A DNA stretch of 64,000 bases. It comes from Strigamia acuminata. Lineage: Eukaryota. The stretch's first letter is position 1. Each line of letters starts with the position of its first letter. The position numbers and the translations under genes were made by a program. Shown here one piece after another: positions 5,938 through 58,659 of this stretch. The stretch lies in contig OX442314.1 of the NCBI GenBank assembly GCA_949358305.1, forward strand, positions 7,502,001 to 7,566,000, written 5' to 3'. Under the pieces are notes generated by a model. That model saw nothing but the letters and a program-made list of their open reading frames with translations, did not search any database and was not told the origin of the DNA.

Positions 5938-6465
5938 AACAAGATAGTGTAAATGAGTCATCAACCAATCACAGAGCTCGGTCTAAAAAATAGACACCTG
6001 CTTTGAGGTTGACCTGTGAACTCACTCTCGTTAGTTCCACTACAGCTGACACATCGCTTAACAATTGGTCATCTCGTGAAGTTTTCTGTCAACGCGAAAA
6101 ATCGGGTAAATTGTGAGTGAACTAATTTACACGAGTCTCGAAAAAGACAACTTTTATTCGGTTTTATTTTAGTTAAGAGGTTTGCCCAAACTTCGTAGCT
6201 AAACCACGTGGGTTTAGGCCCGGAAAACTTCGTCTCGTCGAATTTATTCGACAGTCACCGACACCGGACGTTAATAAACGCTCTTGTTTGGACAAACAAC
6301 GAGGTTTTTTCGTAAGTTAAATTTATTCAACGATAAATTTAATTAATATTTCCGGAGTTTTAAAATTTAACCGAATTTTAATAGGAAATTTCGTACGGAC
6401 AACATTAATTACGTCAGCAAAGAAAACGTCAATTTTTCCACGGATTTACGAGCAAAGATTCAACA

Positions 6466-9046
6466 ATGAGTGGTAAAGTGTTATTTTTGTATGATAAAAT
6501 ATTCAAATACACCGCCATTAACTCGAGAAGTTATCTAGAAAGATAAAACTCGCCAAGTCATGTTATAAAGTACAGGAAGTTCTCACTAGAGGGTGTTCGC
6601 CACCCTTTGAACACGTATCAGGAATCCAGTATCTGAATTATCGTCTTTTAATCGATTAAATTAAATTGTTAAATTTATTAGTCGGTTAAAGGACAATATT
6701 TATGATATTACGGACCTTTCCGAAAAAGGAAAATACGTAAATTAAGCTGTTCAATGTTCGATTTAAATATTTAAACTCAACCGTTTAAAAGTATTTGATT
6801 GTTCAGTGTTTCGCAATAATGACGGACAGGGCATTAGACAAAGTAATTCACCTTACTTCGCTAATTAACATCCCAATGAGAATAATCGAGAAGAACGAAT
6901 TGATATATTTACCTCAAAATAAATATATCAACGTTTAGGCGGTTTATTTGAATTGATGTATTTATTTTACGATAAATACATTAATTATCGGTGACTTGTT
7001 GGTATTTATATGTTTATGTCACGATAAATATATTAAGTATCGGCAATTCATCTGGATTAGGTTATTTTTCGATAACTTTAATTCATTTGATGTGATTTCT
7101 CGAATTTAGGAAAGGATCGAGGGCCACGTAGGTCACCTAATAAACGTCGCCACGTCCATTACGATCACTCGTCGACGTCAGGCGATTCAAGTCCCGACCG
7201 CGGTAGGCCGCCCCGAAACGAGGAGACTTCCAGGTCTGATGGCTTTCAAGCTGTATTGGACTGGGCCAAGGCACGAGGAAAGGAGTTACCCGACTACCTG
7301 AGGAAATTGTTAAAGTCTGCCGAGTCAGCGGGAACCTATTCTTCCGGCAGAGAATGTGCTCAGGCCATAATGGATTGGGCCAAAGCGAGGGGAAAAGAAT
7401 TGCCCGACTACCTGAAGAAGTTAGTGAAATCAGCGGAAGCTACGGGAACGTCCTCAAAGGAAAACACGCTTCAAGTCACGATTAGAGACGAGTCCTGGAA
7501 TCGGCCTTCCACTTCTGCGTCTCATTCCTCGCACTCCAGGGAGAGAAGCAGCCGCCATGTTCGTAGTGACAATCACCCGTACCGTCCGCATTTCCATTCT
7601 GAGAATGAACCACCACGTCCGTTGACTGAACAGCCACGAGTGGTCTATCATTACTCGTCGCAAAAGCCAGCTCGAACCAATACGAGTTCCAACTGGACGG
7701 AATATCGACCAACCCAGTATCGCAGCAGCCATGTCACTCAGAAAAAGAGAGAGACGAAAGCAGCAGCAAAGCCAGTTCCAGCCAAAACCACGCCGATCCT
7801 CCCTAAAGAAAAATTGGACGCAGCCACCACCGCAATCGTAAAGGAACTGAAGAAGGCCGCACCAATCGAGGGCACCAAAGCAGAGCGCAGAGAAATTGTG
7901 GAAAAGGCCGTTAACGTCATTCTTCCAAAATGTCGTCTCCCTTACGATGAACGTGTGGAGGTTACGTGCCCGTTTTGCAATGGCGGAGGCTGGGCGATAG
8001 GAATCGTGCAAGGATGTCATGCAATGCTGTGCCCGAATTGTTCCGGGTGGAAAATTCGTGAGAAAATCTCGCCGTGGAATGACAATGTCCTGCCTTACGT
8101 GGTGATGGGGACCTCGCAGCCTGGACCCCGTATATGGTCCACCTGCGACCCCTGTCAAGTGATTCACTCCCATTTAGGAGAGGTGATCCTAGTAGACCCA
8201 CGGTTCATCGTAGACAATCACCGACCCGGCGGTTACGAGGTTACCACTTGGACTCAGGACGAGGTCCGGATGCTCGCCAATTTAAGCTTAAAAGCTAAAA
8301 AGGCAAATGAAGAATTGGAAGTGAAGCAAGCGGCACAACTGGCGATGACTCCGGTCACCGAGGCAACGATCCAATGCGGAGCCACTCAACCAACTGAGAC
8401 GTCCAAGACCCCCACACCGGTGGAGTCTCCCAAGACGATCACACCTCCACCAGGCCCACCAGCTAAGAAGTTGCCGGCATTAAAATCGGTTGTGACGGCG
8501 TATCCTTTCGTGGTTCCGGCAGGCATCACAAATGAACACGCGGCCGAGTGCGAGATTGATCACTACACTCCCATCATCAGGGAAGCCGCCTTGGACATTT
8601 TCCGACGATTGAACCAGAAGCGCAACGTTTATTACCAGTTGCCCATTTTAGTTATGAGATGGATAATGAACCCGTTGCGTACCGAGCCCTTCCCTGTGTT
8701 GGAACACATATGGGCGCGTTTGCTCGAACGTGTGAGCCAACTTCCCGCCGCCATCCATATCCGCGCAGATTGGAGTGTCGAGCTACCAACGGCTGAAGAG
8801 GTGTTCAAGCAAGAACGACAAGCCAGGGACCCACCAATTGTTAGCTTGCGCCCGTTACCCGACGGATTTGCCGCCAGAATTGGTCGACCAAGTACGTCGA
8901 GAGGAATTTCCCCGAGTGTAGAGACCCCGCTGCCGAGAAGTTCGTCGGAGGACTCGACCAAACTTATCATTGACGAGAGCGCCGACCCTGAAGCAAGCCA
9001 GAAGGACGGGGAAAAGGAAGATGGTCGCCAGAGCCCCGTCATCTAA
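6466..9046 (+). CDS. Gypsy ORF3, non-Env accessory protein of unknown function; predicted join(6466..6472,7110..9046), about 647 aa
   Basis: 596-aa ORF from the track is open upstream to about 7091; acceptor TTTAG|GA at 7109/7110; CAACAATGAGTG|GTAAAG mini-exon gives the matching phase; conserved in copy 2 with synonymous changes; CPFC...CPNC motif; splice model is inferred. Confidence 0.8.
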
Positions 9047-9777
9047 AAAGAGAAGTTACGTCCACGCAACACGTCGTGTCGGACGATATTCGTCAAGTTG
9101 AGTTTTTTAGCCTGTTCAGGCGATCAAAACAATTGTTCTACGAGATCGTGTTGTGTCCATTCCTACTAAAACGAACTAATTGTTAAAAAACTTATGGTTC
9201 TCCACCGTAATGTGCAACTAAAGAGTTGATACATTTCTTAAACCGAACTAATTTTTGTAATGAAACTTTTTTTCGTGTTGTTTTCTACAGCCCAGAGGGG
9301 TGAATAATTTGAAGAGTTTGTTTTTTCAATTTAAGTTGAACAAAATAATTTAACTGTGATACTTTATTTTTTCATTTTAACAAATGTGACTTTAATCTTT
9401 GTAACCCGAAAATTTTATTGATACAGATAACATTATATTATTTAACGATAATTTATGTGTGTTTATTTTTCAAGAAATTAACAAGTTTTGAAAGAATAAA
9501 TAGAAAAACTTTCGTTTGAACATTTAATAATTTGGTGATTATTAAAGACTATTTCGGAGTTTAACGTGATGAATAAGTCCTGATGAACTATTATATATTT
9601 TCGTACGAGGATATATAATATACGAGATGAACTATTAAAATTATATACGGAAAAATATAAATTTCATTAGTTAGTACATGCGTTAGTTGACCCTAACTGA
9701 AGAAGATTTGTCATATATCGCAGTGAAGACGAATCAAGAGGGAATATTTTAAGATATGCCCCTTGATAAGGGGGATG

Positions 9778-11478
9778 TATGACGAACACGGTATTGTTTA
9801 TGCGATATCATGCCAAATCCCACCGATAGATGGCGCTGACGTCAATAAGCGGCAAATTCGAATAGAATTTGTCACTTGATGTAAAACCACATAAAATATA
9901 ACTTTTATGTGATTTTAAGACAGAGAATCGACTTTATCTTATATTTATGGAAATAAATACAGATATTATGTTGTTTTGTGGTAACTCTGCAAAGTTACCT
10001 CAAAAACTAGGTTTAGGGGATTAAATCTCCCCCTCGCACCTGCTCCAAGCGTGGACCCCCGCGGATCAAGTTGAAAGACTTAATCCAAAAGTGTTCCTCG
10101 CTATCCAGTTCCTGTCCCGACCTAGCAGAGAGCTATGGCCTGAGTATCCAGTTCCTGTTGACCACCTGGACTGGAAATGTGCTCTGAGTATCCCATCACC
10201 TGGACCAGTGATTGGGGGGATTTGCAGGACCATTGCTCTCATTGGAGCAATGGCCAAGCTATTGTTTTCCCCGAGTATATACTTCCTCGCAACAGGAAGT
10301 AGCTCGCTCTTGACCAGATATTTGACTATATGTTTTCTTGAGCCCATTCTACTACTCCGGTTGTCATGTTGATTGCGCAGACACTTGCTTGTCTGTTGAT
10401 TGCGCAGTCAATGCCCCTTATACTGCGGGCCTATGACAACCTACATACGGCGTACACTTGACGTGGAGATGGGTGATATGATGCCTCCATGTCCGGGTGC
10501 CCGATGACGGCTGTGTGGCCGTGAGGAGATCAGGTCGCGGCGATGAGTAGTAAGAATCCCGTCGGGCCGGATATAATTCAACAAGTGTTCCACAAGGCCT
10601 GCCAGTTACAGTAAACCACGGCTGCCGAACAGCGTGTCGAAAATGTAACATTAGGGTTGAAATAACTAAACTCGGAAAAGTTTAGTTAGATTAAATCCCC
10701 AGCTAGTTTATGTCACAACTCAACATTGTGCATAAACACGGATACTTCTTCCAGAACTGTACAAAACTGAAGACTAGCTACATTAGCATTTACTTGCCAG
10801 TAAATGTGTAGCTAAATTGCCAACTTTATGTAAGCAGAATTATTACGAGTATTTACTGAATAAGTAATACTCTAATAAATACATCCATTACACGGAACCA
10901 GAAGTTATGATTGTAAACTTGCAACAGTTTACTCTCGTATGAAGAACCATTTGACGTATCACACCAATTATAGATGTCTTAAAACATCTATAAGAGGTCA
11001 ATTGGTAAATGGCTCTCACAAGCCATTTAAACCAATAACCGCCCCAAGTTTGTGGCGATGCAGATACAGTCAACCGGAAGTCCTCGGATACTAACCCTTT
11101 CATTACAGATTCGAACCAGGACCAAATAATCAACCGATTCAGACGACATCTTACCAGGACGAAGCCGATTGATATTATTATAGCGCCGCACAGGCAACTA
11201 TATGTATAGTTTAATCGAGAATTCCTTTGGCCATTTGTCGGCATAGTTATTGTGTAACTATATTTTATGCAAATTGATTAATATAATCACTTTACGGTGA
11301 TTATATTTAGATATCAATAAATATGTTATGTCTTGATAACCGCATGTGTCATTATTTTACCCAGTTCACACTTTAGGTTTTGTCAATCCTATCTCTCAAC
11401 TACTGAATAGATAGACTAGCTTGTTATGCCAAAATACACATTTTGAGCGGATAGCGTCATCGAAAGGTCATCGTCACA
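9778..11478 (+). repeat. 3' LTR of gypsy copy 1 (about 1.7 kb)
   Basis: Follows the PPT; termini TATGACGA...TCGTCACA (5' edge could be TG at 9776); near-identical to 58660-60358 reverse complement. Confidence 0.93.
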
Positions 11479-11479
11479 A

Positions 11480-12899: not shown

Positions 12900-14115
12900 G
12901 CTCGGGGGAGTGTCATTGTAATATCGTGAAACTCGAAACGTTGGCGTAACTTCTGGCCACGTTACGATAACGTGTGCGGTTCGTACGGTATCATCTGCGA
13001 ATAAACTTCTTCAAATCTAACTCGATCAATGGCAAACTTTTTCAACAATTAACAACAAAGGGTTATGGGCACCAGAAGTATCAGCTGTGTGAGTTTATAG
13101 TCTCTATTGAGTACTTTTCGGGCATTTTGACAATTTGACTGCTGACCGGACTATGTGGCACGAGGCCTAGCAAAATGGCGGATCGTGAATCAACGAGAAT
13201 AGAAAAGTTGGAAGACGACAATTACGCCACATGGGCATTAAAAATGCGGATTTTTCTCAAGTCGGAATTGTAGTGTACGATAGTGGTGGACGATGGACCA
13301 GCGGACGGAGCGGCGGCAGGGACGAGGAACCTTTGGCGTGGCAAAGACGACAAAGCCATTAACGCAATCATACAAGCTTTATCGCCGGCCTAGACTGTGT
13401 CCGTGATCAACAAGGACACGGCAGAAGCTGGAAGAAGTGCACCAAGGACGATCGACGCAGCGGCAAACCATTTGGCGGAGAGAGCTGACCAAGATGCGAT
13501 GGGAGAAAACGAAGACGGACACAAAGTTTCTGCAGCGCATGAAGTCGACGGTAAACCAGTTACCAGCGGTCAGAGGCGAAATTTTCTGAGCAAGAAGTTG
13601 GTGCCATGATCATTCAAAACCTGCCGAAAGCGTACTATAGCATTCCGAGAGCATTCGATATCTGCGACAATGATGCAGTGACAATGGTGAAGCTGCGCTA
13701 CATGATCCTGCAAGAAGAGTCGCGCCAGACGAGTGACGACGAAGTGCACGAACAGCTGCACAAAGTTAGTTTGTTGCACTGCACAAACCGCAACAATCGG
13801 GGCGGTGAACGCAACAGTGAAGGAAGCAGCGAGCAGAGCGGTGAACACAGACGAGATTTGAAGCACCTGAAGTGCTACAACTGCCAGAAGTTCGGGCACA
13901 TCGCGAGAAATTGTCTGAGCCAAGCGGGAACCAAAAACGAGCACGATGCAGACCACAACAAGCCAAAGCAGAACGCCAAGAAGGAGCAGCAGCCAGACGC
14001 AACCGTCAGGGCTGTGAAAACTGAAAATGAATTTGCATTTCAGACTAAAACTGAGGGACGAAATTGGAACCCCAATTTGGGCGCAATATGACATATTACA
14101 GGCAACCGGAGCTTT
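12900..14115 (+). mobile_element. Degenerate Ty1/copia fragment (LTR end, PBS, gag pseudogene, protease remnant)
   Basis: GGTTATGGGCACCAG at 13061, close to the copia half-tRNAiMet PBS; ATG at 13175 gives IEKLEDDNYATWALKM then stops/frameshifts; knuckle CYNCQKFGHIARNC. Confidence 0.85.
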
Positions 14116-14249
14116 CTGTTTTTACTTTTCGTCTTGCTGTTAGGTAAGGTTTGTCCAATTAAGCTAAAATTATCCGACATCAGAAATTGTTCATGGGAAC
14201 TAGAAAAAGAATGCACCTAAACAAATTCGTTTCCATCATTTTGAACATA

Positions 14250-15193: not shown

Positions 15194-18100
15194 TTATTTC
15201 TTCTTTTGGAACCACACCGAAAAGCTCTTATTCTTAAACCAAGTAAAAGTGTTTAAAATGCAAATGTAGAAAGACAGCAAAGACATTCCTAAACCTAATC
15301 CTATGATGCTACCGACATCGCTTAGCAATTGAGATATCGGATATGCCTGTTGCTCTTCTACACTCTCTAAGAAAGTGTCAGGGAATTCAATAACCATTAA
15401 TGTGAAAAGAAAATCCAATAATTTAATCTCATTGCCATGCAAAACAATTTTGTAAAAACTATTTTCACAAGGAAGTCTGCATTTGCATTGTTTTTGATTT
15501 GAGTCAAAATTCTTTAAATATATTAAATGAGCGGTAGTAATTTCTGTCGTTGTGTTACAAACTGGCAAATCGGCTCTCCAGAAATAAGGTAATCTGAAAC
15601 ATTTACAAACAATTGTAGTACAGTATTTAACTTCACTGAAATGCATAGGAATTTTTTGAACGACGGGTGCATATCTATGTGTTGCAAACAGGACAAAATC
15701 ATAATTGAGATGTGTAGGAAGTGAAGTGTCTGGATTAGCATACCTGCAGTTAACGGTTTGAAACAGATTGTTTTGGATGCAAGCATTTTTACACTTGAGA
15801 TAAGCACTTTTGTTTTGCTCACATGGGTTTTGCTTTGTATTTCTTTGTATAGTCTGTTTTATAAAATCCAAATAAGTTAGAATGAAAGCGTGTAAGTATA
15901 GTTTGTTTAATCTATTACCTTAAGTGCTCGAAGTGTTACTATGTTCCACCAACCATACTTTAAAGTCATAGGTGCTAAGATGTTAACTTCTTCACGTGGA
16001 TTATTTAGGAAAACCTAAATGCCGTATTATTATTATTTCATAGTAATGAATATTTATCCATAATTGACAAAATGTTCTTTGACTAATCTTTGTATTTAAT
16101 TACTAAATTGGAGTGTTGAATGCAACAAATAATAAATAAATATTACCTTCAAATCCTGGTCACATGGTTTGTAGGGAAATTCATTATATAATGTAATAAA
16201 AAGGTAAGAATTTAGGTCTTTTGATATTTCTGCAAAACATTGCAAAGGATAGGAATTAAGCCCATTGGCCATTGTGTCTTTTTCTGTATCTTTTGCGCAC
16301 GTAGTTAAAGCGCGATTGCTCGATTTGGCCATCTCCCTCTAAGAGATCCCAACCAGTTTGACGCGGCATTGGTTTCTACGATAATCTGGTCGTTGACGAC
16401 AGCCATAACGGCACGTAACCTCGACTGGACTGTGGACACGCGCTGGGTTGGTACTGAACATATTTCCACCTGAGCCGAGCAAGGCATATGCCGCCCTTTT
16501 AAACAGTAAAAATATTTTTTGTTGAAAAAATCGGTTTGTGCGCCCACAGATGCCGTCCTAGAAATATGCCACCTGAGGCAACCGCCTCACCGCCTCACAC
16601 CTCGCACCAGCCCTGCAATTATTCTTGCTTTTTATAATTCCAAAGAACCCAAGCTTAATTCGTGAATGATCGAGCGAGGGGATACCTCGCCGCCACACTT
16701 CAGGCGGATTATCAAAAAATGAGCCATCGTTCAAACAAGGCTCTCCTCATTTTGTACCCGGCATGTCTTTCAAACGCGTTTACCATTTCTTATAAATTTA
16801 ATAAAAAAGCACATTATAATTACCTGTGTTAATTCGTGAACAATTACCAAAAGGAAGTGGAATAGGATGCATTGATATATTTAATTTAATTTTATATCCA
16901 TATAACATCTACAAAATTAATAATTTTCATTTCTGCGTTTGCTTTTGGAATAAAACATACTACTAGTACAGACATACCTCATTATCAATATCAATTGTGT
17001 TATGAACATTGAGTGTTTCCCAGATTTCTACAAGTGACAAGTCGTTATTGAACAATTGCCAAGGCGATATCTCACTGCAGGTTATGTTAGTGTGGTTCAG
17101 TAAATATGATCTGGCTTCGTCCATATCATCATTTTGGTTTTCAGCACAGAGGGTGACTGACGGAAATTTGGTATGACGACGTTGAACTATTCTAACCATT
17201 AATGTTACCGGTTCATCAATGTAGTAGTTGATACGAATTTGCAACCAATATAAAGTGAATCCCGCAGTCACAAATACCAGAACAAACTTAAGCTTTTTTA
17301 AGACACGAAATGTCATGGTTTTCTCTTCATTCTCGATGACTCTCATCTTGCATATCTCGTACAGAGCGCGAATCTTAACAACGGATGTTTTTTGGTGACT
17401 GTTAGTTGCAATATAATGTAAATACCCAGTGAGTTCAGGTAATGAAATTAATGCTAGACCGAGAAACAGGCCAAGATTGCCTCCTAAATCAGACAGAAGA
17501 GCAATTGCGTCGTACGTATATCGTTCTTCATACACGCTAATTTTGTCATTAGTAATTGCTAGAGATACTGATACAGTTTTTTTATCATCTGCTAGGCCTA
17601 TTTCAGTGGAAGGTGTAAAGGTTATTTGATGACATGGTCGTCGACAGAGACAAACATTAATGGGATTTGTGGTTTGAATCAACCGCTTTGCAGCAAAATG
17701 ATGCATGTGAATGTCCTTTGAACATTTGCAGAGTGGTAAATCGATCTTCATGAAGGGAAATCTTTAATGAAAGATTTGTAATCATTATTTTTTTTACGTT
17801 TTATCTGCACTAAGTGGGAGCGGAAAAGACGTAGAAAACGGAAATGATGTAGGGAACGGAAATGATTTATGGACAATTCAACCAGTTCTGCATCTCACTC
17901 TAAACGAAGTTGTACACCCAATGGCCAAAAGAGCAATTCATTTTTCTGCCGCCGGCAGCTGGAGCAGTCTGCTTTTACTGGATGTAACAGAAAGTTTACA
18001 TGTTACTAACACTGAGATTTTTAGTGAACTTAAAGCAATTACAGGATATTAAACGCCGGGGCATTTATTAATTTTTTCAACTGATTCCCGCCCCCCCCAT

Positions 18101-19529
18101 CCCCATGGTCGGATTCTATTCGGGGCGGCGCGCTGTGCAATAAATACCGCCGACTCCAGGCGTTTAAATGCGTCTCGGCATCTATTTAAACCCATCGTTT
18201 ATTCGAGGCAGTAGAGTCTTATATTATTTGAAGTCACAAAAATGCTCTGTAGTCTCATTTAAACTTTCTGTTGTCCCCCAAGAAAACTAGACTGATCCAT
18301 CTGAAAAATTAACTGCTCATTTGGAGCTGAAGCAGTGTGACTGCAAGTGAAGATTTTTATGGCCATAGGTGTACATTTTGCACATTAGGGACCTTGCTCC
18401 TTTGCAAATTTTTTCATCTTATACCTGCATGTTAGCTTCTCCTTAAATTTTTTCAATAGACACTTTCGATAGCATTCTCTGTATTCATCTTCACCGGAAC
18501 ATTTATTTATTGGTGAATTCAGAAAAATGAACTAAAATTATTGAATAAAATAAGGAGATCATAATAGTAATTGCGCAAGAAAAAAATTTTACTTTGTTAT
18601 AAGTTAAGTAAACTTTTGTTGTTCCACCGAGTTGTTGTGATCCCATGCCGAGGTTTTTTCCAAAATCATAGAAATGAAGAAAAACCTACAGGCAAAGAAA
18701 AGAAAAGTAGCCGACAATCATTTTTGCAATTTATTAAAATTACACTGTAAGGTGCTGCGGGGCACATGTAATCATCACTATTTCCTATTTTGACTGTTAC
18801 TTCTTGTCCGACAAATGATTCGCTAGATGCCTTAGCTAAATATCAATAAATAATACAGTGCATTGAAGTTGATAATGGAAAATATTCGATTTTACTTACG
18901 AAAATGAATTGATGAGCATATTCCAGCATGATTGCTCATTTCTGTCAGAACAAATGTTTTGTTTGAATTAGAATATCTCTATGCAAAATAAAAAGATTTA
19001 AATAATTTTTTAACTCATTAAAAATCACTTTATTCCATCTATTTACTTTTATCTTTACGGTCACTACTTCTTTCGTCAAATTACTCGCTTCCCAAATTTC
19101 TTCTAGATTGTAAGTTGGGATTGCCATCAGTGAAGTCACCATGCTCATGCAGCCGAAACCTGAATCTTTTGATTGTGCATTAGTTTGATTCCAAAGTCTG
19201 GCCATTTCTTTCGTATTGCCACTACATATCATCAAATTTGGTAGAACAACCTCTTCCGATCTACTTGTTACATCAACAGCCGTAGGATAACTTAGATAAT
19301 GCATTATCCTGTCATTAGTCTGATAAGTAAGCATGCACATGCAAAATGAGAACAATAGAACCCAAAACACGCGCTGGTGGCTCCCACGATGATTGGTATT
19401 GATAAAATCATCCAAGCCAATTAAGTTGCATCTAAGTTTATTTTCATCGTCCTTCAGTAATCGCTGAATCGCAAGACGTAGTTTTCGTAATCTTTGGCTG
19501 CTTATTTTGTTGAAATAATTATTCTGCAT
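15194..19529 (-). CDS. DEG/ENaC (pickpocket/ASIC-family) channel with two tandem subunit domains, copy A, about 797 aa; exons 19529-19065, 18978-18900, 18835-18744, 18685-18593, 18531-18425, 17761-16978, 16908-16824, 16229-16147, 16014-15919, 15853-15744, 15593-15194
   Basis: TM1 + YLSYP + LPNLMIC; GIC; Cys-rich thumb; TM2 LLSDLGGNLGLFLG; then second TM1 + YYIDEP + FPSVTLC, FGNC, thumb, TM2 LLSDVGSIIGLGLGMS; all introns GT-AG; exons sum to 2394 nt in frame; structure mirrored in copy C. Confidence 0.9.
17915..18371. mobile_element. TA-flanked MITE in intron 5 of copy A, containing a fragment of a second MITE
   Basis: TIRs CACCCAATGGCC / GGCCATAGGTG, same family as 24552-27121; internal about 18050-18215 resembles 22481-22648; absent from the short equivalent intron of copy C. 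Confidence 0.75.
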
Positions 19530-21484: not shown

Positions 21485-22380
21485 GTTCAACAATTAACAA
21501 CAAAGAGTTAAGGGCATCAGACGCATCAACTGTGTGAGTTTATAGTCGCTATTGAGTACTTTGCGGGCATTTTGATGAACTTTTGGCGTGGCAAAGACGA
21601 CAAAGCCATGAACGCGATCATACAAGCTTTAATCGCCGGCCCAGACTGTGTATGTGATCAACAAGGACACGGCAGAAGCTGGAAGAAGTGCACCAAAGAC
21701 GATCGAGGCAGCGGCAAACCATTTGTCGGAGAGAGCTGACCAAGATGTGATGGGAGAAAACGTAGACGGCCATAAAGTTTCTACAGCGCATGGAGTCGAC
21801 GGTAAACCAGTTGCAAGCGGTCGGAGGCGAAATTTCTGAACAAGAAGTAGACACCATGATCATTCAAAACCTGCCTAAAGCGTACTACAGCATTTTGAGG
21901 GCATTTGATATGTGCGACGATGATGCTGTGACGATGGTGAAGCTGCGCCACATGATCCTGCAAGAAGAGTTGCATCAGACGGGTGACGACAAGGTGCACG
22001 AAAAAATGCACAAAGTTAGTTTATCGCACCACACGAACGACAACAATCGGGGCGGTGAACGCAACAGTGAAGGAAGCAGCGAGCAGAGCGGTGAACGCAG
22101 ACGAGATTTGAAGCATGTGAAGTGCTACAACTTCCAGAAGTTCGGGCACATTGCGAGAAATTGTCGGAACTAAGCGGGAACCAAAAACGAGCACAATGTA
22201 GACCACAACAAGCCAAAGCAGAACGCCAAGAAGGAGCAGCAGCCAGACGCGACCGTCAGGGCTGAGAAAACTAAAAATAAATTTGCTTTTCAGACTAAAA
22301 CTGAGGGACTAGATGGGAACCTCGATTCATATGCGCAACACGACATATGACGGGCAACCGGGACTTTCTGTTTTTACTCT
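21485..22380 (+). mobile_element. Second copy of the degenerate copia gag fragment (part of a segmental duplication)
   Basis: High similarity to 13040-14140 with an internal deletion; same downstream flank (CATCAGAAATTGTTCATGGGAACTAG). Confidence 0.85.
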
Positions 22381-22480
22381 TCGTCCTGCTGTTATGTCCT
22401 GCTGTTAGGTAAGGTAAGGTAACATCAGAAATTGTTCATGGGAACTAGAAAAAGAGCCTTAGAGACTTAGAATGCACCTA

Positions 22481-25258: not shown

Positions 25259-26256
25259 GAAAACTCTCACTTTAGCGACGCAAGTTTTAGCGATTGCTTA
25301 AAATTTGCGTTCACTTTAGCGACCGCCACTTTAGCTGTGCATGCTAAAATTCATCGCAGAATTGTGGTGTGTTTTAGCGAACTCCGTTTTAGCGACGGGT
25401 ATTTTTTAGCGACGTATCTGCGGTAACTGGGGTTCCGCAGGCATCAAATACGTTGCTGCTGCGTAGCATTCACGTCTTAGCGACGTGACACTCTAGCGAC
25501 CAGTATATAAGTGCAAGTGGATGGCATACAGAAATCATTTCACCTTCGAACAGGCGCAGTCGCAACAATGGCAATCGAAATGCTTAAAACAATCCGGGGT
25601 AAACCCAAGCTTTGTCTGCGTGGGTACTGTTATATCATTGAGAAACAGAAACCGGATAAGATTTACTGGAAGTGCGAAAGTTGGAAAACGAAGTGTGGCG
25701 GACGCGTAACTACTACTCGGAACACGGTGCAGCCAGTAATAACGATTGACCCAACGGCGCATAGTCATTGTCCTGATGCGAATCGAGCAGATGTCATCAG
25801 AGTGATGCAGGTTCTTAAAGAGCGTGCCGTGCTTACTTCATCATCACTGACTTCGAGATTGGTGCAATAAATGCAGCCAGAGAGGTTTTCCCGGACACCA
25901 TTATGCATGGCTGACACGGAACAAACCTGTGAAGGTATCTTCACTGGTGTGCAAAACCCTAGGAAGAGTCGCTTAGTCCAGCAGCGTGAAATTAGGATCC
26001 ACAGTTTGCTAAGGAACAGGCAACATACGCCTGTTCTGAAGTTTTTGCGGGGAATTGCGCGTAGTTACAGCAGATTCTAATAAAAAATTAATTTTGCCAT
26101 CAGACTGGTCCTTCTATAAAATATCAGGTGGTCAAAAAAATTTGACCTGGAGTGTATCTTAGCGGCGCCTGCAGACGCTAAAGTGTATCTGTCCCTAAAG
26201 TGGAGGTCGCTAAAGTCAACGTCGCTAAAATCGCGTCGCTATAGCGACCCATTCTC
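25259..26256 (+). mobile_element. Internally deleted Mutator-like element (MULE) retaining a FLYWCH zinc finger
   Basis: Imperfect G-start TIRs with TTTAGCGAC repeats; imperfect 9-bp flank AAAATATTC/AAAATATCA; 25568-25870 encodes RGKPKL..RGYCY...YWKC...CGGR...HSH; no DDE core. Confidence 0.75.
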
Positions 26257-27322
26257 AAAATATCAAAGATACATGCTTTTTTTTTTTTTACTTCTGATCC
26301 AGTGCCCAATTTTCATAATAAAAGTTAATTTCATTGGCATTTTCTAAAGAAATACTAGATAACTCATCATGTATTTATATGTATGGATAGAATTTTTTTT
26401 AGATGTTTTTATATATTTTGCTAGCTTAATTCTCCATTCTTTAGGAAATATTTCATGTTTTTCTCTCATCCCTCCATCCAGAAGTCCAGTTAATCGATTT
26501 CGCTGTTCTACACTGAATTTTGGTGCCATTTTTTGCAAACAAAGTGTTTAATTCTTTTCCTTTAACCATGTTAGGAGTTTGCAAATTTTGTGTGATGTTA
26601 GAGTTTGAATACATTAAGGAAATAAAATACAACAAAAGTTATGATTTATTTTTTATTATACTTGTATATTTAAAAATTTAATTTACTATAATCTGGTCCT
26701 GTTGAAGTGGATTTGGAATGATATTTATTTAATGTTCACATCAAACTGTATGTGGCAAAACTTTGCCAAAACGTGTGCCAAAACGTGGCAAAATGTGTGC
26801 AAAAGTGTGGCAAAATGTGTGCAAAAGCGTGGTAAAATGTGTGCAAAAACGTGGTAAAATGTGTGCAAAACTTGGCAAAATGTGCGCAAAACTTGGCACA
26901 ATGTGTGCCAAAACGTGTTAAAATATGTGCAAAAACGTGGTAAAATGACACGACTAAATTTGCTTTTAAGTTCACTAAAAATCTAAGTGTTAGTTGCATT
27001 TAAACTTGCAGTTGCCCCCAGGAAAAATAGACTGCTCTGGCCGCCGGTGGCGGAAAATTGAACTGCTCATTTCGAGCTGGAGCAGCGTAAGTGCTTGTGA
27101 AGATTTTTTTGGCCATAGGTGTACATCTCAAGGAGTGAGGACACACATTGTAGGTGGAAAGTTAACAAGTAAGCTTTATTTCTGAACAGGGGGTTAAATA
27201 CAGTTGTGGGATCAAGAGAGATCTCTCCCATTGGTCGGTCAAAAAAGGTCAGTGACAGTTCACGACCCTAAGTCTTCTCCCACTTTGTTCACAACGTCCT
27301 GTTCCTAATTATTAGGGGGCAA

Positions 27323-29056
27323 TCAACAATATGCATCACCAACGACTTTGGCTGTCCGTTTAATTCCCCACAAATTCCCCTCACGAACCGCCAATTTCGT
27401 TTGCTCATCGACACAATAAATATCAACTTCGGTCAGGTTTGCAGCTCGCTGGTCCCATATTTTTTGTCTGCTTCTCTTACGTCTTGCTCGCCGTTTGTAG
27501 CCCGGTCTCCTTTGTGTGATTTTCCCTTCGTGGCCCAATTCGAGATTATTGTGGTTATTTCTCGCATTACCTCGTCTTTCATTATCGTCTCGAATCGTCT
27601 CGTCTTCGCCTTGGATCGCTCCGTCTTCGTTTTGGATTGCCTCGTCTCGTCTCGTCTTGTTTTCGTCCCGATTCGTCTCGTCTTCGTCTCGAATCGCCTC
27701 GTCCCGCCTCGTCGCGTCTACGTCTTGAATCGCCTCGTCTCGTCTCGTCGCGTCTACGTCTTGTTCGGTCTCGTCTACGTCTCGAATCGTCTTGTCTTCA
27801 TCATCGTCGCTCTCGTCTTCATCGTCATCGCTCTCGTTTTCATCGCCATCGCTCTCGTCTTCATCGTCATCGCTCTCGTTCTCATCGCTTTCGTCTTTTT
27901 CTTCATCGCTCTCGTCTTTTTCTTCATCGCTCTCGTTTTCATCGCCATCGCTCTCGTCTTTTTCGTCATCGCTCTCGTTTTCATCGCCATCGCTCTCGTC
28001 TTTTTCGTCATCGCTCCACAAACAATATCCGTGTTCAATTATATTTTTCTTGTTCGCCCATGCTTCGTCATTCTTGCTTTGAGTGTCATCGTCCTCGCCT
28101 TCCGCACAATTGTCCTCGCTCTGCGCGTCGCTGTTCTCAATCAAGAATGCGCGTAAGACTCTTTCCTTCAGTTTTGGTGCGGTGTGTTTTCGGTTGTCTT
28201 CGATCGTTAATGCGCGTAGGGTTCTTTCCTTTGGTGTGTTATATCTTTGGTTGTTTCCCTGCCTCGGTTGGGCGCAGTTTGTCGCTTTGTGCCCCGTTCC
28301 TTGGCAGTTGAAACATTTCGTCGGATTTCTGCAATCGCTGGCCATGTGACCGGTCATGTCACAATTGTAACATCTTCTTTCGTCCGACCGCTTTTCGTAC
28401 CGTTTAACTGTCGATTTATACGCAGCATTCGATGGTTTCTCCTCGTCTTCTCGTTTCGTCCTTCTGTCTTCCGCTAATTTCAGTGTGTCTCGAATGTGTT
28501 GCATTGTTAGATTTTCTCGCTGTTCTAGCGCCAAAACGTTCTGGTCAAATTCCCTTCGCAACCCCTGCATCGCAAAGAATCGCACATCGTGATCGTCCAC
28601 CGCCTTCCCAAGTTGTAAACTCTCATTTTGTAGTGCTTCGATGCGGTTTAGATATTGGTCCACGGTCTCCGTTTTCGTCATCTCGAATCTCGATAATTTG
28701 ATGTTACACATTAGCTGGAGGTTTTTTGTTTTCGCCGCCATGCTGCTTTTGATTTTTGTCCATAATTTTCTTGCATTGTCTTCTGCTTGATGCCGTAGTA
28801 CCTGCTCCGCTGATAGCGTGTTGATGATAATTTCCATTGCCTCCGAATTTTCGTCGTCCCATTCGTCCCACTTCTTCTCCACTTCAGCGCAATTGTCGTC
28901 TTCTGCTTTGCCACGCGGCGGCTCGTCCGCCAAAATGACCTTCTTCCACAATTTTCGGCTCTTCAAAATCGTTTTTATCCGACGGGACCACAGCAGATAG
29001 TTTTTGTCGTCTAGTAGCTCCACTGCCGCAAACATGTTGAATTTCTTAGTCGTCAT
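27323..29056 (-). CDS. gag: Copia-type Gag with two CCHC knuckles, an acidic repeat tract and an RNaseH-like tail
   Basis: LLDDKNYLLWSRRIKTILKSRKLW copia Gag N-terminus; CYNCDMTGHMASDC and CFNCQGTGHKATNC; ESDDEKD-type repeats; ORF runs into the 3' LTR; probable ATG at 29056. Confidence 0.85.
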   Translation of the reverse strand: MTTKKFNMFAAVELLDDKNYLLWSRRIKTILKSRKLWKKVILADEPPRGKAEDDNCAEVEKKWDEWDDENSEAMEIIINTLSAEQVLRHQAEDNARKLWTKIKSSMAAKTKNLQLMCNIKLSRFEMTKTETVDQYLNRIEALQNESLQLGKAVDDHDVRFFAMQGLRREFDQNVLALEQRENLTMQHIRDTLKLAEDRRTKREDEEKPSNAAYKSTVKRYEKRSDERRCYNCDMTGHMASDCRNPTKCFNCQGTGHKATNCAQPRQGNNQRYNTPKERTLRALTIEDNRKHTAPKLKERVLRAFLIENSDAQSEDNCAEGEDDDTQSKNDEAWANKKNIIEHGYCLWSDDEKDESDGDENESDDEKDESDGDENESDEEKDESDEEKDESDENESDDDEDESDGDENESDDDEDESDDDEDKTIRDVDETEQDVDATRRDEAIQDVDATRRDEAIRDEDETNRDENKTRRDEAIQNEDGAIQGEDETIRDDNERRGNARNNHNNLELGHEGKITQRRPGYKRRARRKRSRQKIWDQRAANLTEVDIYCVDEQTKLAVREGNLWGIKRTAKVVGDAYC

Positions 29057-30360
29057 TTTGTCGCTTCTCTCGTGACTTGTAACAATCGTCGTGCTGTGTG
29101 TTTCTTTCTCAATAACCAGCGGTCTGCTACCATTTGTTGTACATCTGAAGGAGTGAGGACACACATTGTAGGTGGAAAGTTAACAAGTAAGCTTTATTTC
29201 TGAACTGGGGGTTAAATACAGTTGTGGGGTCAAGAGGGATCTCTCCCATTGGTCGGTCAAAAAAGGTCAGTGACAGTTCACGACCCTAAGTCTTCTCCCA
29301 CTTTGTTCACAACGTCCTGTTCCTAATTATTAGGGGGCAATCAACAATATGCATCACCAACGAGTTTGGCTGTCCGTTTAATTCCCCACAAAGATAAGTT
29401 ATTTATTTACTAGACAATTCGTATTAAAATTAACAATATCACACTTATAATTGCCTTGTTAGAGGGCAAACAACAATCATATTTCGATTATGGATTTTTT
29501 TAAAAACACACGCAAATCTTGTTAAAATTCTTTGAATCGGCATAAAACTGTCAGCATCCTCAACTTCTGTATTTTGGTCAAAAATTTCAACAGGTCTGCC
29601 ATACATCGTCTGATGCTTTCACGTAATTTGTAAACCAAACCAAGCAACCTTAAGAATAATATGATTTTTTTGTTCATTAGTTACTAAAACTTGATGTAAC
29701 CAAACTTCTTAAACTTTACATGACTTTACAGACTCATCACATGTTAGCCAAGATGCCATTACATAGGAAGATCGATGACTTCTACTGTTTTGTGAACCAA
29801 TGAATGTTCCCCCAAATCTGATATTTTTCACTTGTTTTATATGAATTATAACATGGATTTCATTGTTTCCATAGATTTTCCGGTAGCACTGTGCCAAATG
29901 AATTTTTTTTCTGCGGTGTCAAAACTTTCTCTTTCACATTTTTTAAGTTATACATCTCCTTATGTACTGTCCAGTCAAACTGATGAACCACATTTGATGG
30001 ATCAGCCATTTCACGCAATTTCAATTAATTATTTTACATTGAATTTAATCTATTAAAGTAATTGTAAAGCTATAAAAACCATACTTTATTTTCTCTAGTA
30101 AAGACATTCTAACCATTAACTTTACATAAATTGTAAAGTTGATTTTTAACTCAGGAAAGTTGTACTTGTAAATGCAGGCTTTTTATAGGAAAGTTGTTGT
30201 AGTAAAGTCAACTTTAGCACAACAAGTAAAGTCAACTTTAATAACTGTTAAAGGTGGGCTTTCCAAGAACTTTTCTGGTCATTCACAACATGGAAAGTTC
30301 CAATTTCATGCAGTGTTTATCTTGCTTAAATGACTAATAAATCAGCCATCATTTTGAACA

Positions 30361-31697: not shown

Positions 31698-32674
31698 TTA
31701 TTTCTTCTTTTGAAACCACATCGAAAAGCTCTTATTCTGATACCAAGTATTAGTGTTTAAAATGCAAATGTAGAAAGACAGCAAAGACATTCCTAAACCT
31801 AATCCTATGATGCTACCGACATCGCTTAACAATTGAGATAGCGGATATGCCTGTTGCTCTTCTATACTCTCTAAGAAACTATCGGGGAATTCAATAACTA
31901 TTAATGTGAAAGAAAACCTCGATATTTTATTCTCATTGCCATGCAAAACAAATTTGTGAAAAGTATTTTCGCAAGGCAGTCTACATTTGCATTGTTTGTG
32001 ATTCGAGTCAAGATTCTTTAAATACGTTAAATGAGCGGTAGTAATTTCTGTTGTTGTGTTACAAACTGGCAAGTCCTGTCTCCAGAAATAAGGTAATCTG
32101 AAACATTTACAAACAACTGTAAACTGAAACGGCTAGGTGTTTTTTGAACAACTGGTGTATGTGTTTCAAACAGGATAAAATCATAATTGAGATGTGTAGG
32201 AAGTGAAGTGTCTGGTTTAGCTTACCTGCAGTTAACGGTTTGAAACAGATTGTTTTGGATGCAAGCATTTTTACACTTGAGATAAGCACTTTTGTTTTGC
32301 TCACATGGATTTTGCTTTGTATTTCTTCGTATAGTCTATTTCATAAAATCAAAATAAGTTAGAATGAAAGCACGTAAGTATTGTTTGTTTAATTTATTGC
32401 CTGAAGTGCTCGAAGTGTTACTATGTTCCACCAATCATAGTTTAAAGTCAAAGGTGCCATAATGTTAACGTCTTCATTCAGATTATTTAGGAAAAACTAA
32501 ATATTATTATTATTCAAAATGATGTATACAGTATAGTATTTATCCGTAATTGCCAAAATGCTCTTTGACTAATCTTTGCATTTAATTACGCCATTGGAGT
32601 GTTGAATGCAATAAATAATAAATAAATAGTACCTTCAGATCCTGGTCACATGGTTTGTAAGGAACTTCATTATA
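31698..32674 (-). pseudogene. DEG/ENaC copy B, 5'-truncated (exons 31698-32097, 32226-32335, 32401-32496, partial 32633-32674)
   Basis: Close paralogue of copy A exons 8-11; exon 8 broken at TA by an element starting CAGGGTG (32675); exon 9 donor is GC; upstream exons not found in the window. Confidence 0.85.
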
Positions 32675-32945
32675 CAGGGTGGAACAAAAGTCTGTTCCCC
32701 TCAAATATTTCCTCAGCAATTGCATCTAGGCCAACTTTGATGAAACAATCGTATAGGAAGTTGGGTGAGAGCAATCCAATGATGTCATCAAATTTGACCT
32801 TGAAGGCCATTTTCAAGGTTATTCACTTGCTAACTTCTAAACCAATCAGGTTAAAGCAAAAAAGTCAATTACAAAGTTGTAGAGCACCATCAAATTAGTA
32901 CTATCCAACTTATCCTAGTCATCTTAAGTTAAATGTTTTCCTAGC
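32675..32945. mobile_element. Tc1/mariner-like MITE end
   Basis: TA|CAGGGTGG start; similar inverted sequence at about 46560-46791 ending CACCCTG|TA. Confidence 0.55.
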
Positions 32946-41759: not shown

Positions 41760-44700
41760 TTATCGCCTCTTTTGGATCCTATCCTGATACCAATTATAAG
41801 CATTTAAAATGCAAATGTAGAAAGACAGCAATGACATTCCAGAACCTAATCCCACAATGCTACCGACATCGCTTAGCAATTGAGATATCGGATATGACTG
41901 TTGCTCTTCTATACTCTCGACGAAAGTATCAGAGAATCGCAGAAACATTACCGTGAAAAAATTAACTAATAATTTATTTTGATACAAAATAATTTTGTTA
42001 AAACTATATTCGCAAGGCAGTTTACATTTGCATTGTCTTTGATTCCAGTCAAAATTTTTTAGGTACATTAAATGAGCGATCATAAATTCATTCGTTGTGT
42101 TACAAGGTGGCAAATTCGGCTTCCTTAGGTAAGGTAATCTAATACAAAACAATGGTGACATTTGCAAAATAAAAACTGTGGTATGTAACTGAAAAGATAA
42201 TTTTTAAACAACAGGTACAGTAGAATGCCGATTATCGGAACTAGTTGGGAAACATAGATGTTTATAAAATCAATTTATTCGCATGATCTGACATTGGGTT
42301 GATGTACGTAATGTATACTGTAGATGAAAGATCCATCACCTCTGTTCAGATATTCGGCATTTGACTGTATGTGTTAAACTGAGATGTGTAAAAACTGAAA
42401 TATTTGAAATAGCATACCTGCAGTTAACATTTTGGAGTAAATTGCTTTGGATGCAAGCGGTTTTACACATAAAATAAGCACTTTTGTTCTCTTCGCATGG
42501 ATTATGCTTTGTATTTCTTCGTACAGTCTATTTCATTAAATAAAACTGAGTTTGAATAAAAGCATATACGTGTGGTGACCCTGAAGTGTTTTTTATTTAT
42601 TTGGGAAATAAATTTGTCACCACTAAAGAAATTGTGTATTTTTATTTCATTTTGGTTTGGCGTGTGCCAAACTAAGTCACGTGATTACCCATATGGTTGC
42701 AAAATTTATTGCAATATATTTCGAAAAGTACAGAAATGTGTGCCAATATATTTTGAAATGTATTTACCATCGTCGTACATTTTGAAATATATTTCTGAAT
42801 ATATTTTAAATACATTTTAAATTATATTCTAAATGAAATACATTTCAAAATACATTTTAAAAGACATTGTAATTACAATATATTTCAAAATACATTGGAT
42901 AGTACATTCTAAAATACATTTTAAAACACATTGCACTTACAATATATAGTTTAATCTTTTAATCTATAACAAAAGATAGAATTGTCACAAATTTAAGCTA
43001 TTACCTTACCTGAACTGCTTGAAGTGTTACAGTGTTCACCCAACCATAGCTTAAGTCCAAAGGTGCCAGAATGTTAACTTCTTCTTCCAGATCATTTAGG
43101 AAAAACTATGAATATAATGACAATGCAAAATTAGATGTATTAGATATAAACATACCCTGTGAGTAGGAGCTAGCATGACCACTTGGCGAAGGGCCCCAAA
43201 TAAGAGGAGGCCCATCAAGGGAGCACAAAATCTGATTTGATCCCCTGAAGTGCTCGCTGGGGCAAATGGGGCAATTATTTTTCAAAAAATTCTTGAACCG
43301 ACATAAATCCTCAATCCGCCCAGGTTGTATTACCTTTAGATGCTGGTCACATACTTCTGAAGGAAACAGCATTTGAAAAAAAATTATTAAGTAAGCAGTT
43401 CGGTCGACTGATTTTTCTGAAAAACATTGGAAAGGTACAAAATATTATTTAGCAATATCAGGTAGGTATTTATTTTAATAATCAAATAATCCATAATAAA
43501 AGCTGTTGTGTATTTTATGTACATTGAGAGCTTATGGCCTAAATAACTGTGCAGAGTTTAGAAGGATAATAAAACGATTTTGTGATTGTACCCCACAGCA
43601 TTCAATCGGATGCTGACCCCTCCCTTTGTGTTGTTTCTTAATTACCTATGCTTATTTGTAATTAAGCGGCTTGATTAAAGACTATTGTTAATTAATAAAT
43701 GTAATGTGAAATAAAAGGTGAATGTAAAATTTATAAATTACCTGTGTTTATTCGTGAACAATTACCAAAAGGGAGTGAAATGGGATGCATTGATATGTTA
43801 AGTGCTATTTTATATCCATAAGATTTCTACAAAAAAATAGTTTTAATCGTTGAGTTTGGTTTTCTAATATTTTTGGAGAATGTACACTACAAGTAAGCTT
43901 AGTACCTCATTCTTAATATCAATTGTGTCGTGGACATTGAGTGCTGCCCAGATTTCTTCTAAGGACAATTCACTGCTGAGCAATTGCCACGGCGATATTT
44001 CATTGCAGTTTTTGTTAGTGTGTTTCAGTAAACGTGATCTAGCGTCGTCCACATCTTCATTTTGTTTTTCACCACAGACCGTGACAGATTGATATTCAGT
44101 GTATTGGCGTTCAACTATTCTAACGATTGTTGTTACCGGTTCATCAAAATAGTAGTTGATACGAACGTGCAAGCAATATAGAGTTAATCCTGAGATCAGC
44201 AATACTAGCACAAATTTCATCTTTTCTAACACTCCATTTGTTATGGTTTGCTCGTCGTTCGCAGTGACTTTCTTTTTGCATTCCTCATACAGACAGCGAA
44301 ACGTTTTGACGGATAATTTTTGGTCAATGTTAGTTGCAATATAATAAAAATACCAAGTAATTTCAGGTAATGAGATTAATGACAAACCGAGAAATAGGCC
44401 AAGATTGCCTCCTAAATCTGACAGTAGAGCAATAACGTCGTAGGTGTATCGTTCTTCATACACGCTAATTTTGTCATCAGTTATTGCAAAAGATGTAAAT
44501 GAAGTTTTAGCATTCTCTGCTAACCCTGTATCAGTGGTTGGTGTAAACGTTAATTTTTGACACGGATGTCTACAAAGACAATCTGTAAGTGGATTCGTGC
44601 TTTTAATAATTTGATTTGCACTGTTGTATTGCTCGTATGTGTTGTTCGAACATTTGCAAAGTGGTAAATCCGTCTTGGTAAAAGGAAACCTTGGAAAAAA

Positions 44701-45841
44701 AATATTTTTTTATTTTTCTAACGACGGGATATAATGGCAATATTCCTTACCTGCATTTTAGCTGTTCTTTAAATTTTCTCCCTAGACAACTCCGATAGCA
44801 TTCTCTGTGTTCATCCTCACTAGAGCATGGGTTTACAGGTGAATTAAGAAATTTGAACTAAAATTTTAAAACAGCATAAGATGATGAGTACTAAATTTAA
44901 ATTGTGGTTAAAATTTTACTTTCTTATAACTGAAATTAATTTTTGTTGTTGCACCGGGATATTGCATTCCTATGGAAAACTTTCTTCCAAAATCATAGGA
45001 TGCAAGTAAAAGCTAAGTGAAAAAAAAAGTAAGTGAATATCAATCAAAATTTGAATTTATTCAAATTACCGTATATGGCTCTGTAGGACATATGCCTTCA
45101 GAACTTTTTTCCATTTGTACTGTCAGTTCTCCAACAAATGTTTTAGCTATGTCAATGAATGATAAAGCATATTTTAGTCAATGTTTAAAATAAATATTTG
45201 ATATAATTACAAAATTTTATTGTTGAGCACATTCCGTGTAAACTGTTCATTTCGGTCAGAACAAATGTTTGGTTTGAATTGACATATCTCTGCTCGAAAA
45301 CAAGTTTCAATTTTGATTTTGTTTTAAATTAAAAAATATTCACCTTTAACTTTATTAACTTTAATTTTACGCTCACTACTTCTTTCGTCAAATTAGTCGC
45401 TTTCCAAAGTTCGTCTACATCGTAAGATGGGATTGCCATAAGTTTTTGCAGCATGTGATTGCATTGGTAGGTTTGAATTGTGAGGTGTCCATATGTTTTA
45501 AACCAAAGTCTGGCCATTTCTTCCGTATTTGTATTACAGATAATCAAATTTGGTAAAGTAACATCTTCCGATCTGCTCGTTACGTCAACAACGGTTGGAT
45601 AACTCAAGTAATGCATTATTCTATCATAAGTCTGATAAGTAAGCATGCACGTGCAAAATGAAAATAAAAGAAGCCAAAACAAGCGACGCTTGCTCCCACA
45701 ATGATTGCTATTGATACAATCATCCAAGCCGATTAAGTTGCATCTAAGTTTATTTTCATCGTCCATCAACAATCGCTGAATTGCAGGACGTAGTTTTCTT
45801 AATCTTTGGCTGCTTATTTTCATGAAATAATTATGCTGCAT
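41760..45841 (-). CDS. DEG/ENaC tandem two-subunit channel, copy C, about 785 aa; exons 45841-45377, 45289-45211, 45146-45070, 45012-44920, 44857-44751, 44689-43906, 43826-43742, 43416-43334, 43105-43010, 42527-42418, 42138-41760
   Basis: Same 11-exon layout and phases as copy A, all GT-AG, 2358 nt in frame; TM2a LLSDLGGNLGLFLGLS, TM2b LLSDVGSIVGLGSGMS. Confidence 0.9.
42218..42367. mobile_element. Tc1/mariner-type MITE in the last intron of copy C
   Basis: TA|CAGTAGAATGCCGA...TCGGCATTTGACTG|TA. Confidence 0.7.
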
Positions 45842-58628: not shown

Positions 58629-58659
58629 TAAATGAAATTTTTGCTTTTAGATTACAGTT

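Follow-up and report, generated by a model that had tools for sequence, protein, structure and literature searches.

How can a channel that is built from three subunits be made from a chain that carries two? DEG/ENaC/ASIC subunits are normally proteins with two transmembrane (TM) helices that assemble as trimers, and a two-subunit chain cannot build such a trimer alone. The question is raised by a gene of the centipede Strigamia acuminata, situated on the minus strand at 15194..19529 of a 64,000-nucleotide (nt) stretch of DNA (hereafter the window; GenBank assembly GCA_949358305.1, contig OX442314.1, positions 7,502,001 to 7,566,000 of the forward strand, renumbered from 1). An earlier account made from the letters of the window (the sequence-only reading) had put the stoichiometry problem in these terms, and it was correctly posed. 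The fused frame is real, is no artefact, and is broader than a single gene. Its product is given about an even chance of being a four-TM chain that supplies a fixed pair of unlike units, a and b, to one trimeric channel, the third place of which would be filled by a separate two-TM subunit.

The gene, here called copy A, is read from an ATG at 19529 to a stop at 15194, and its parts are as follows.

15194..19529, minus strand: copy A, the two-unit DEG/ENaC gene, 11 exons, 799-803 amino acids (aa), with Pfam ASC matches at both ends of both halves
19047..19529, minus strand: exon 1, N-terminus, TM1a (~19370-19302) and start of ectodomain a; donor 19046 or 19058
18900..18978, minus strand: exon 2, ectodomain a, ending in phase 1
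18744..18835, minus strand: exon 3, ectodomain a, phase 0
18593..18685, minus strand: exon 4, ectodomain a, phase 0
18425..18531, minus strand: exon 5, cysteine-rich thumb of a, phase 2
16978..17761, minus strand: exon 6, 784 nt, joining the last exon of unit a with the first of unit b, as given by splicing, Pfam and contigs
17416..17511, minus strand: TM2a, aa 369-400, with Asp376 and Gly379 at the gate ring; GLA replaces GxS
17293..17415, minus strand: linker, 41 aa, predicted to be cytoplasmic
17227..17292, minus strand: TM1b, aa 442-463
16824..16908, minus strand: exon 7, ectodomain b, counterpart of exon 2, phase 1
16147..16229, minus strand: exon 8, ectodomain b, phase 0
15919..16014, minus strand: exon 9, ectodomain b, phase 0
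15744..15853, minus strand: exon 10, thumb of b, phase 2
15194..15593, minus strand: exon 11, end of ectodomain b, TM2b (~15325-15248; Asp763 and Ser766 at the gate ring, GMS), short tail and stop

Splicing was assigned by coordinates, and all ten introns are GT-AG. The exon-1 donor of copy A is ambiguous (19046 or 19058); the open frame is 803 aa long, or 799 aa with the alternative donor that is common to copy A and its paralogue, copy B. A Pfam scan of exons 1, 6 and 11, not extended to the short middle exons, matched the ASC profile (PF00858) in exon 1 (profile positions 5-87, E 1.9e-10), in the first 153 codons of exon 6 (347-453, E 6.6e-10), in the last 120 codons of the same exon (26-93, E 1.7e-6), and in exon 11 (333-449, E 1.1e-11). 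The scores for these N- and C-terminal parts of the two halves (40.8, 39.0, 27.8 and 44.9 bits) compare with a curated cut-off of 23.6. Local TM1 and TM2 profiles place two membrane helices around an ectodomain of ~290-300 aa in each half, and alignments show a cysteine-rich thumb and a post-TM1 'P-x-C' strand in each. Each half of the predicted chain is a DEG/ENaC unit, yet the whole chain is not a canonical two-TM subunit. The anatomy proposed in the sequence-only reading (TM1a-ectodomain-TM2a-linker-TM1b-ectodomain-TM2b), together with its expectation that both halves would match the ASC domain, is borne out by the 11-exon open frame and by matches at all four ends. Its expectation of four TM helices holds in part: hydropathy (Kyte-Doolittle peaks >=1.5) marks TM2a, TM1b and TM2b, whereas TM1a falls below that threshold and is recovered by the local TM1 profile only. 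A third unit beside copy A was considered and ruled out, given a stop before the ATG and the stop 17 codons past TM2b; tblastn found no further ASC piece flanking the gene. Separately, intron 10 of copy A (15594-15743, 150 nt) is open in frame, so that a transcript retaining it would gain 50 aa and meet no stop; in neither copy B nor a third, fragmentary copy C is this intron open.

The junction of TM2a, linker and TM1b lies within the single open exon 6 (17761-16978), and it recurs in a second gene of the window.

41760..45841, minus strand: copy B, complete paralogue with identical 11-exon layout, an open gene of 787 aa, 65% aa identity to copy A
44689-43906, minus strand: exon 6 of copy B, 784 nt

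The linker has the same length in both copies (41 aa) and is ~14 aa shorter ahead of TM1 than the N-terminus of unit a; the spacing between the TM2 and TM1 profile hits is 54 aa in both window copies and 52-78 aa across the family described below. Contigs were taken from two public runs (X1 and X2) of one study, their kind not given, which are a possible source of the assembly and hence not an independent sample. One contig in each run spans 17260-17488 with 0 differences, X2 also contains a diverged third-copy contig over 17211-17559 with 60 differences, and the three contigs with listed linker indels all stay in frame (net -6, 0 and +3). The 980 and 858 contigs aligned to 5.1 kb suggest many paralogues, although summed contig depth is not equated with copy number. 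Difference-free contigs across the linker, the two copies, and matches in Strigamia maritima together rule out an assembly artefact. The sequence-only reading had located the junction in an open 784-nt exon at 16978-17761 and an intact exon of equal length in a paralogue at 43906-44689; the coordinates and frame of the first are confirmed, with contigs free of differences, and the second proves to belong to an 11-exon open gene. The linker that it put at about 45 aa exists, its length being 41 aa by the boundaries used here. When 25% of bases are changed at random, exon 6 remains open in 0.15% of trials and the linker alone in 29%; two open linkers are therefore weak evidence by themselves, and the weight comes from the family.

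Fused relatives are numerous among the predicted proteins of S. maritima. Exon 6 matches three of them across the junction at 52-54% identity (2/1714 and 2/710 candidates). A full phmmer scan gave 207 matches at E <=0.001, of which the listing comprises 150. Among 163 sequences, one TM2-then-TM1 junction is present in 34 and two in 4, a count that takes in both copies of the window as well as cluster members that are nearly identical. The 17 S. maritima proteins examined were selected for spanning the junction, and in all of them TM2 is followed by TM1; eight further junction-bearing rows are of the same type. Thirteen of the 17 belong to the family of the window genes, which answers in the positive the proposal of the sequence-only reading that related genomes be searched for the same fusion. 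The fused entries include T1JEH2, T1JGJ4, T1IYF0, T1JD34, T1ITL7, T1IPM9, T1J963 and T1JBK6, all labelled 'Uncharacterized protein'. Four others (P0008 T1IU28, P0009 T1IZL2, P0010 T1ITG7 and P0017 T1IL99) form a separate group with repeats that resemble each other, two of them having two junctions and so three or more units; this group is judged to be younger than the window family. A profile search with the family alignment matched 2 of 7997 candidates and added no new species, and a metagenome scan for the architecture returned 79 pattern matches, of which none was confirmed.

The fusion appears to be old, and its two units distinct. An IQ-TREE analysis (LG+G4, short search without bootstrap) covered 62 units chosen from the pertinent region of a 162-row FastTree tree. 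One branch, with a Shimodaira-Hasegawa-like approximate likelihood ratio test (SH-aLRT) value of 93, has 16 first halves together on one side; a second branch (98) has 17 second halves so placed, and a third (100) has six units of the second multi-unit group. In all 16 a-group rows a b unit follows, and no stand-alone a-type protein is present among the retrieved rows. The a halves have a median identity of 23% to one another, and the b halves of 20%. One old fusion followed by expansion of the fused gene would be the simplest reading of this pattern. Within the window, half a and half b are 22-25% identical. Intron phases are 0,1,0,0,2 in each half, and the introns occupy alignment columns 169/168, 196/196, 227/231, 263/263 and 299/299 in a/b (three of five the same, one off by 1 and one by 4), from which we infer a whole-gene tandem duplication. 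Loss of the stop and of the intergenic DNA would have followed, with the last exon of an upstream gene a merging with the first exon of a downstream gene b, and the fused gene would then have multiplied as one unit. The ratio of nonsynonymous to synonymous substitution rates (dN/dS) between copies A and B is 0.52 (0.42-0.63) overall, 0.52 (0.39-0.71) for half a, and 0.48 (0.35-0.66) for half b; both half intervals lie below 1, and selection acts on both halves.

The predicted pore helices of halves a and b differ systematically. Counting from the conserved Asp of TM2, the gate-ring position Asp+3 is Gly in 23/23 first halves; in nine second halves it is Ser in six, Asn in two, and Gly in one, and in single-unit rows it is Gly in 19 of the 21 parsed (8/29 unparsed). 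At Asp+4 the first halves have Asn in 22/23 cases and the second halves usually Ile or Val, and Asp+18 is acidic in 17/23 first halves versus 1/8 of the second halves that reach that position. The Asp itself, Gly+2 and Gly+10 are kept in 9/9 second halves and Ser+12 in 6/9. Half a of copy B carries the complete TM2 motif Asp..Gly-Gly..Gly...Gly-x-Ser (ending in GLS), half b has Ser in place of the second Gly, and the GxS serine is present in 21/23 first halves. The His-Gly (HG) loop ahead of TM1 was not found: in half a the aligned segment reads IGLD and has no His, the window half b is without the segment, and two S. maritima b halves retain it. In mapping the gate ring onto ENaC, alpha-S589 is taken here to be the GxS serine. 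The upper and lower gates are formed by Asp372/Gly375 in PDPNaC1 and Asp433/Gly436 in ASIC1 (PMC12714832), and the homologous ENaC ring consists of alpha-S580, beta-G522 and gamma-G534 (PMC2217053). Vertebrate ENaC thus has one Ser and two Gly at the ring, a difference that resembles that of b against a. The pre-TM1 HG is not needed for DEG/ENaC membership, because PDPNaC1 lacks the canonical HG motif, yet conducts (PMC12714832).

The fold was modelled with AlphaFold2 from 24 sequences on a homologue, P0012 (S. maritima T1JD34, 791 aa), which stands in for the window protein. The model has a mean predicted local distance difference test (pLDDT) value of 72.4 and a predicted template modelling (pTM) score of 0.67, with four TM helices and the same order of helices and strands in both halves; TM2a is a helix at 359-400, followed by a helix at 405-452 that runs into TM1b. 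The predicted fold of this homologue is that of ASIC/ENaC. Against BRTNaC1 the Foldseek E value is 1.4e-17, and half b (423-787) aligns to it with Z 21.2 and a root-mean-square deviation (rmsd) of 5.5 over 336 residues (8YMR); against PDPNaC1 Z is 19.6 and rmsd 3.6, and against ASIC1, which has the same fold, Z is at most 14.7. Half a has one row only in the fold list (Z 12.1), and residues 40-400 align to an ASC model in the ESM Atlas with a TM score of 0.70; near P0012 this atlas lists only ASC clusters of single-unit length, which bears on neither novelty nor absence. The best PDB sequence matches of exons 6 and 11 are likewise BRTNaC1/PDPNaC1 (E 1.5e-11 and 4.1e-7). These Scolopendra antennal channels (PDB 8YMR/8YMW/8YMX and 9JF7, respectively) have a compact ectodomain similar to the window halves. 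They are not orthologues, because they fall outside the 50-row group that holds both halves, and they are single subunits of 431 and 421 aa forming homotrimers (PMC9974506, PMC12714832), as opposed to the two-unit chain found here. BRTNaC1 is a centipede heat sensor (PMC9974506) and PDPNaC1 a centipede proton sensor (PMC12714832). Because of the likeness to these two channels and of the ENaC expansion in mites (PMC5203786), a sensory role may by analogy be proposed for the window genes.

In the preferred reading, which as stated has an even chance, the chain would be made whole and remain uncut, a and b would occupy adjacent places in one trimer, and a separate two-TM subunit with Gly at the gate ring would fill the third. 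The resulting lower gate ring would hold one Ser/Asn and two Gly, like that of alpha-beta-gamma ENaC. The same part of the tree contains complete relatives of one unit each (P0015, P0030 and P0051), which have Gly at the ring as well as a pre-TM1 loop. A constant pair with a variable third place also has a precedent in the beta-gamma pair of vertebrate ENaC (bioRxiv 10.1101/2024.05.28.595834), a heterotrimer in which this pair is joined by alpha or delta. ENaC differs in that it is encoded by three separate genes, has no covalent link between subunits and is distant in sequence; its likeness to the window chain is functional only.

Several observations weigh against this reading. The pore asymmetry fits two chains per channel (a-b plus a) as well. 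The tree carries long-branch warnings, its outgroup is not one clade, and it comes from a short search without bootstrap; in the 162-row FastTree tree, which had no close b-type rows, the window b halves fall outside the b group. Co-divergence of a and b across 13 chains (Pearson 0.86) is driven by close pairs, the Spearman coefficient being 0.22 (p 0.05), and the deep a and b lineages show none (Spearman 0.01, p 0.48, 10 chains). The S. maritima proteins are gene predictions, many of them visibly fragmentary or mis-joined, and were judged without exon structure. The modelled homologue is only 24-26% identical to exon 6, its model draws on few sequences (24), and its linker (406-419) has pLDDT <50. 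Constraint on the linker sequence is not measurable, dN/dS between copies A and B being 0.83 (0.32-2.55) over 41 codons. Copy A, unlike copy B, carries Ala where half a would have the GxS serine (codon 388, listed at 17374-17376), and the window half b is without both the pre-TM1 loop and the acidic Asp+18, features that would also fit a weakened or non-conducting half.

The alternative that survives best, although it is considered unlikely, is that two chains form one channel from a-b and the a of a second chain, with the spare unit hanging out or seeding the next channel to give linked clusters. This arrangement would need no partner gene and would yield the same Gly/Ser/Gly ring; it also agrees with the b unit that follows in 16/16 a-group rows without any stand-alone a-type protein retrieved, and with the dimer-of-dimers that ENaC beta-gamma forms if the third subunit is missing (bioRxiv 10.1101/2024.05.28.595834). 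However, one subunit surface would be left unpaired, and the single-unit relatives in the same part of the tree offer a third subunit that this arrangement has no need of. A smaller chance is given to a double-barrelled assembly in which three chains form two pores (a3 plus b3, or a2b plus ab2). It would leave none of the six units unused, each half is complete and evolves under selection, and the nearest relatives of solved structure are homotrimeric. Against it, Ser/Asn would stand two or three times in the narrow lower gate of a b3 or ab2 pore, a position that is Gly in 19/21 parsed single-unit rows, and the one 41-aa linker per chain would need to bridge two trimers. The pTM of 0.67 for the whole homologue P0012 hints weakly at a preferred a-b packing instead.

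Two further alternatives, which concern the transcript or the polypeptide itself, are both held to be improbable. In the first, the gene would supply its own third subunit, since skipping five consecutive exons including exon 6 would leave an in-frame two-TM a/b chimera, able to complete the trimer together with the four-TM form. Such skips are open in 5/5 cases in copy A (412-415 aa) and in 4/5 in copy B (401-407 aa), and skipping exon 6 alone breaks the frame of copy A. Open five-exon skips are nevertheless automatic from the duplicated intron phases and show no sign of use, and the chimera would join halves that are 22-25% identical and end in a Ser-type TM2b. In the second, the halves would act as separate proteins after cleavage of the linker, or through transcripts that end or start in exon 6. 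A linker sequence that is free to change and in-frame Met codons between TM2a and TM1b (exon-6 codons 139 and 149 in A, 157 in B) agree with this, but the Met positions are not common to A and B, exon 6 contains no 2A-like or R-x-K/R-R motif, and AATAAA/ATTAAA is absent from exon 6 of A and occurs once in that of B, upstream of TM2a. Half a, moreover, would have no stop of its own except by read-through past the exon-6 donor, giving a three-TM product, and the frame persists throughout a family in which the halves share ~20-23% identity with each other. It is very improbable that only one half conducts, with the other serving as a tethered sensor or chaperone domain that carries no current: half b departs from the pore consensus at Asp+3, Asp+4 and Asp+18 and lacks the pre-TM1 loop in the window subfamily, yet Asp, Gly+2 and Gly+10 persist in 9/9 second halves and Ser+12 in 6/9, and PDPNaC1 conducts without the canonical HG motif (PMC12714832).

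Chains with more than one unit are also found in other arthropods. Three TM2 motifs are present in sequences from Penaeus vannamei (P0070/P0155, XP_069977668), Cherax quadricarinatus (P0081/P0160), Eriocheir sinensis (P0146) and Halocaridina rubra (P0150), and in P0050, P0052 and P0092; these are candidate single-chain trimers. The XP_069977668 cluster includes five Logan sequences, each 1001 aa long, from contigs of 3.4-4.0 kb, and a 1001-aa product in a contig of <4 kb would fit a spliced mRNA. The middle unit of these chains is mostly short (~200 aa), with Pfam scoring two stretches; all three score in P0150. An AlphaFold2 model of the three-unit shrimp-cluster chain P0070 (8 sequences) reached pLDDT 49.9 and pTM 0.35. 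Three- or two-unit ASC chains with closely related repeats include a 1460-aa three-unit protein of Polypedilum vanderplanki (P0024, KAG5672929.1), a 920-aa two-unit protein of Centruroides vittatus (P0102, XP_067131715.1), and P0045, P0067 and P0137; these, the midge and scorpion chains among them, may be true fusions or merged gene models. In the 162-row FastTree tree the units from the decapods, the midge and the scorpion cluster lineage by lineage and stand clear of the centipede family, a pattern that suggests independent fusions. A broader picture, offered tentatively and with some doubt, would be a centipede family of hard-wired two-thirds channels in which an asymmetric a-b scaffold is completed combinatorially at the third place and serves as a sensory receptor code, accompanied by repeated arthropod DEG/ENaC fusions that extend to single-chain trimers in decapods.

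The surroundings of the two complete genes in the window include one further piece of the family.

31698..32680, minus strand: copy C, a 3' fragment with part of exon 8 and exons 9-11

This copy is 5'-truncated, being cut beside a remnant of a hAT-type transposase (32928-33923); its exon 11 has 85% identity to that of copy A, and its exon-9 donor reads GC. Copia-type gag fragments that are 88% alike lie on both sides of copy A (13324-14210 and 21574-22455), and another copia gag open reading frame (ORF) lies between 255-nt direct repeats that are 98% alike (27120-29392). A long terminal repeat retrotransposon occupies 2-5934, with gag, protease-like, reverse transcriptase, RNase H and integrase domains. 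An inverted duplicate of 5.3 kb (6158-11479 and 58659-64000, 95.7% identical) contains in each arm a 651-aa ORF without a convincing Pfam match, and a FLYWCH zinc-finger ORF at 25511-25867 is likely part of a DNA transposon.

Full-text literature searches, from which subscription journals are largely absent, returned no paper on multi-unit DEG/ENaC chains. In the available text of PMC8438182, Strigamia PPK candidates are mentioned once, without 'fusion' or 'fused'; that of PMC10148893 does not contain 'concatem', and that of PMC9822975 contains none of the terms looked up. The main text of the Strigamia genome paper (PMC4244043), most of whose supplements lie outside the search, contains neither 'ENaC' nor 'degenerin', and decapod ENaCs are listed without architecture in the available text of PMC7510291 and PMC7067487. 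Two-unit genes would be split, trimmed or discarded by annotation pipelines built around a single ASC domain, and the family, which appears large in Strigamia, is present in databases as uncharacterised proteins. The data point to an expansion of sensory channels that has been overlooked beside the recently described heat and acid sensors of centipedes; they also point to shrimp and crab chains of three units. Since two of the three subunits have a set order and handedness in a natural two-unit chain, the rules of heterotrimer assembly can be tested directly without artificial linkers; the pore differences between a and b provide a natural experiment on gate asymmetry.

The closest designed counterparts are the engineered ASIC/ENaC concatemers, in which TM2 is joined head-to-tail to the next TM1 to fix subunit order; these are man-made and usually consist of three copies, whereas the window chain is natural, with two unlike units and a short linker. 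Tandem fusions are familiar in other oligomeric membrane proteins (e.g., the two-pore K2P channels, TPC, the four-repeat Nav/Cav channels, and the urea transporter UT-A1), and as in the window gene, duplication and fusion have hard-wired unlike subunits. In K2P, TPC and Nav/Cav the number of repeats divides the symmetry of the channel, whereas the two units of the window chain do not divide three. Among these fusions, the nearest case of two units in a trimeric family is UT-A1, each unit of which has its own pore.

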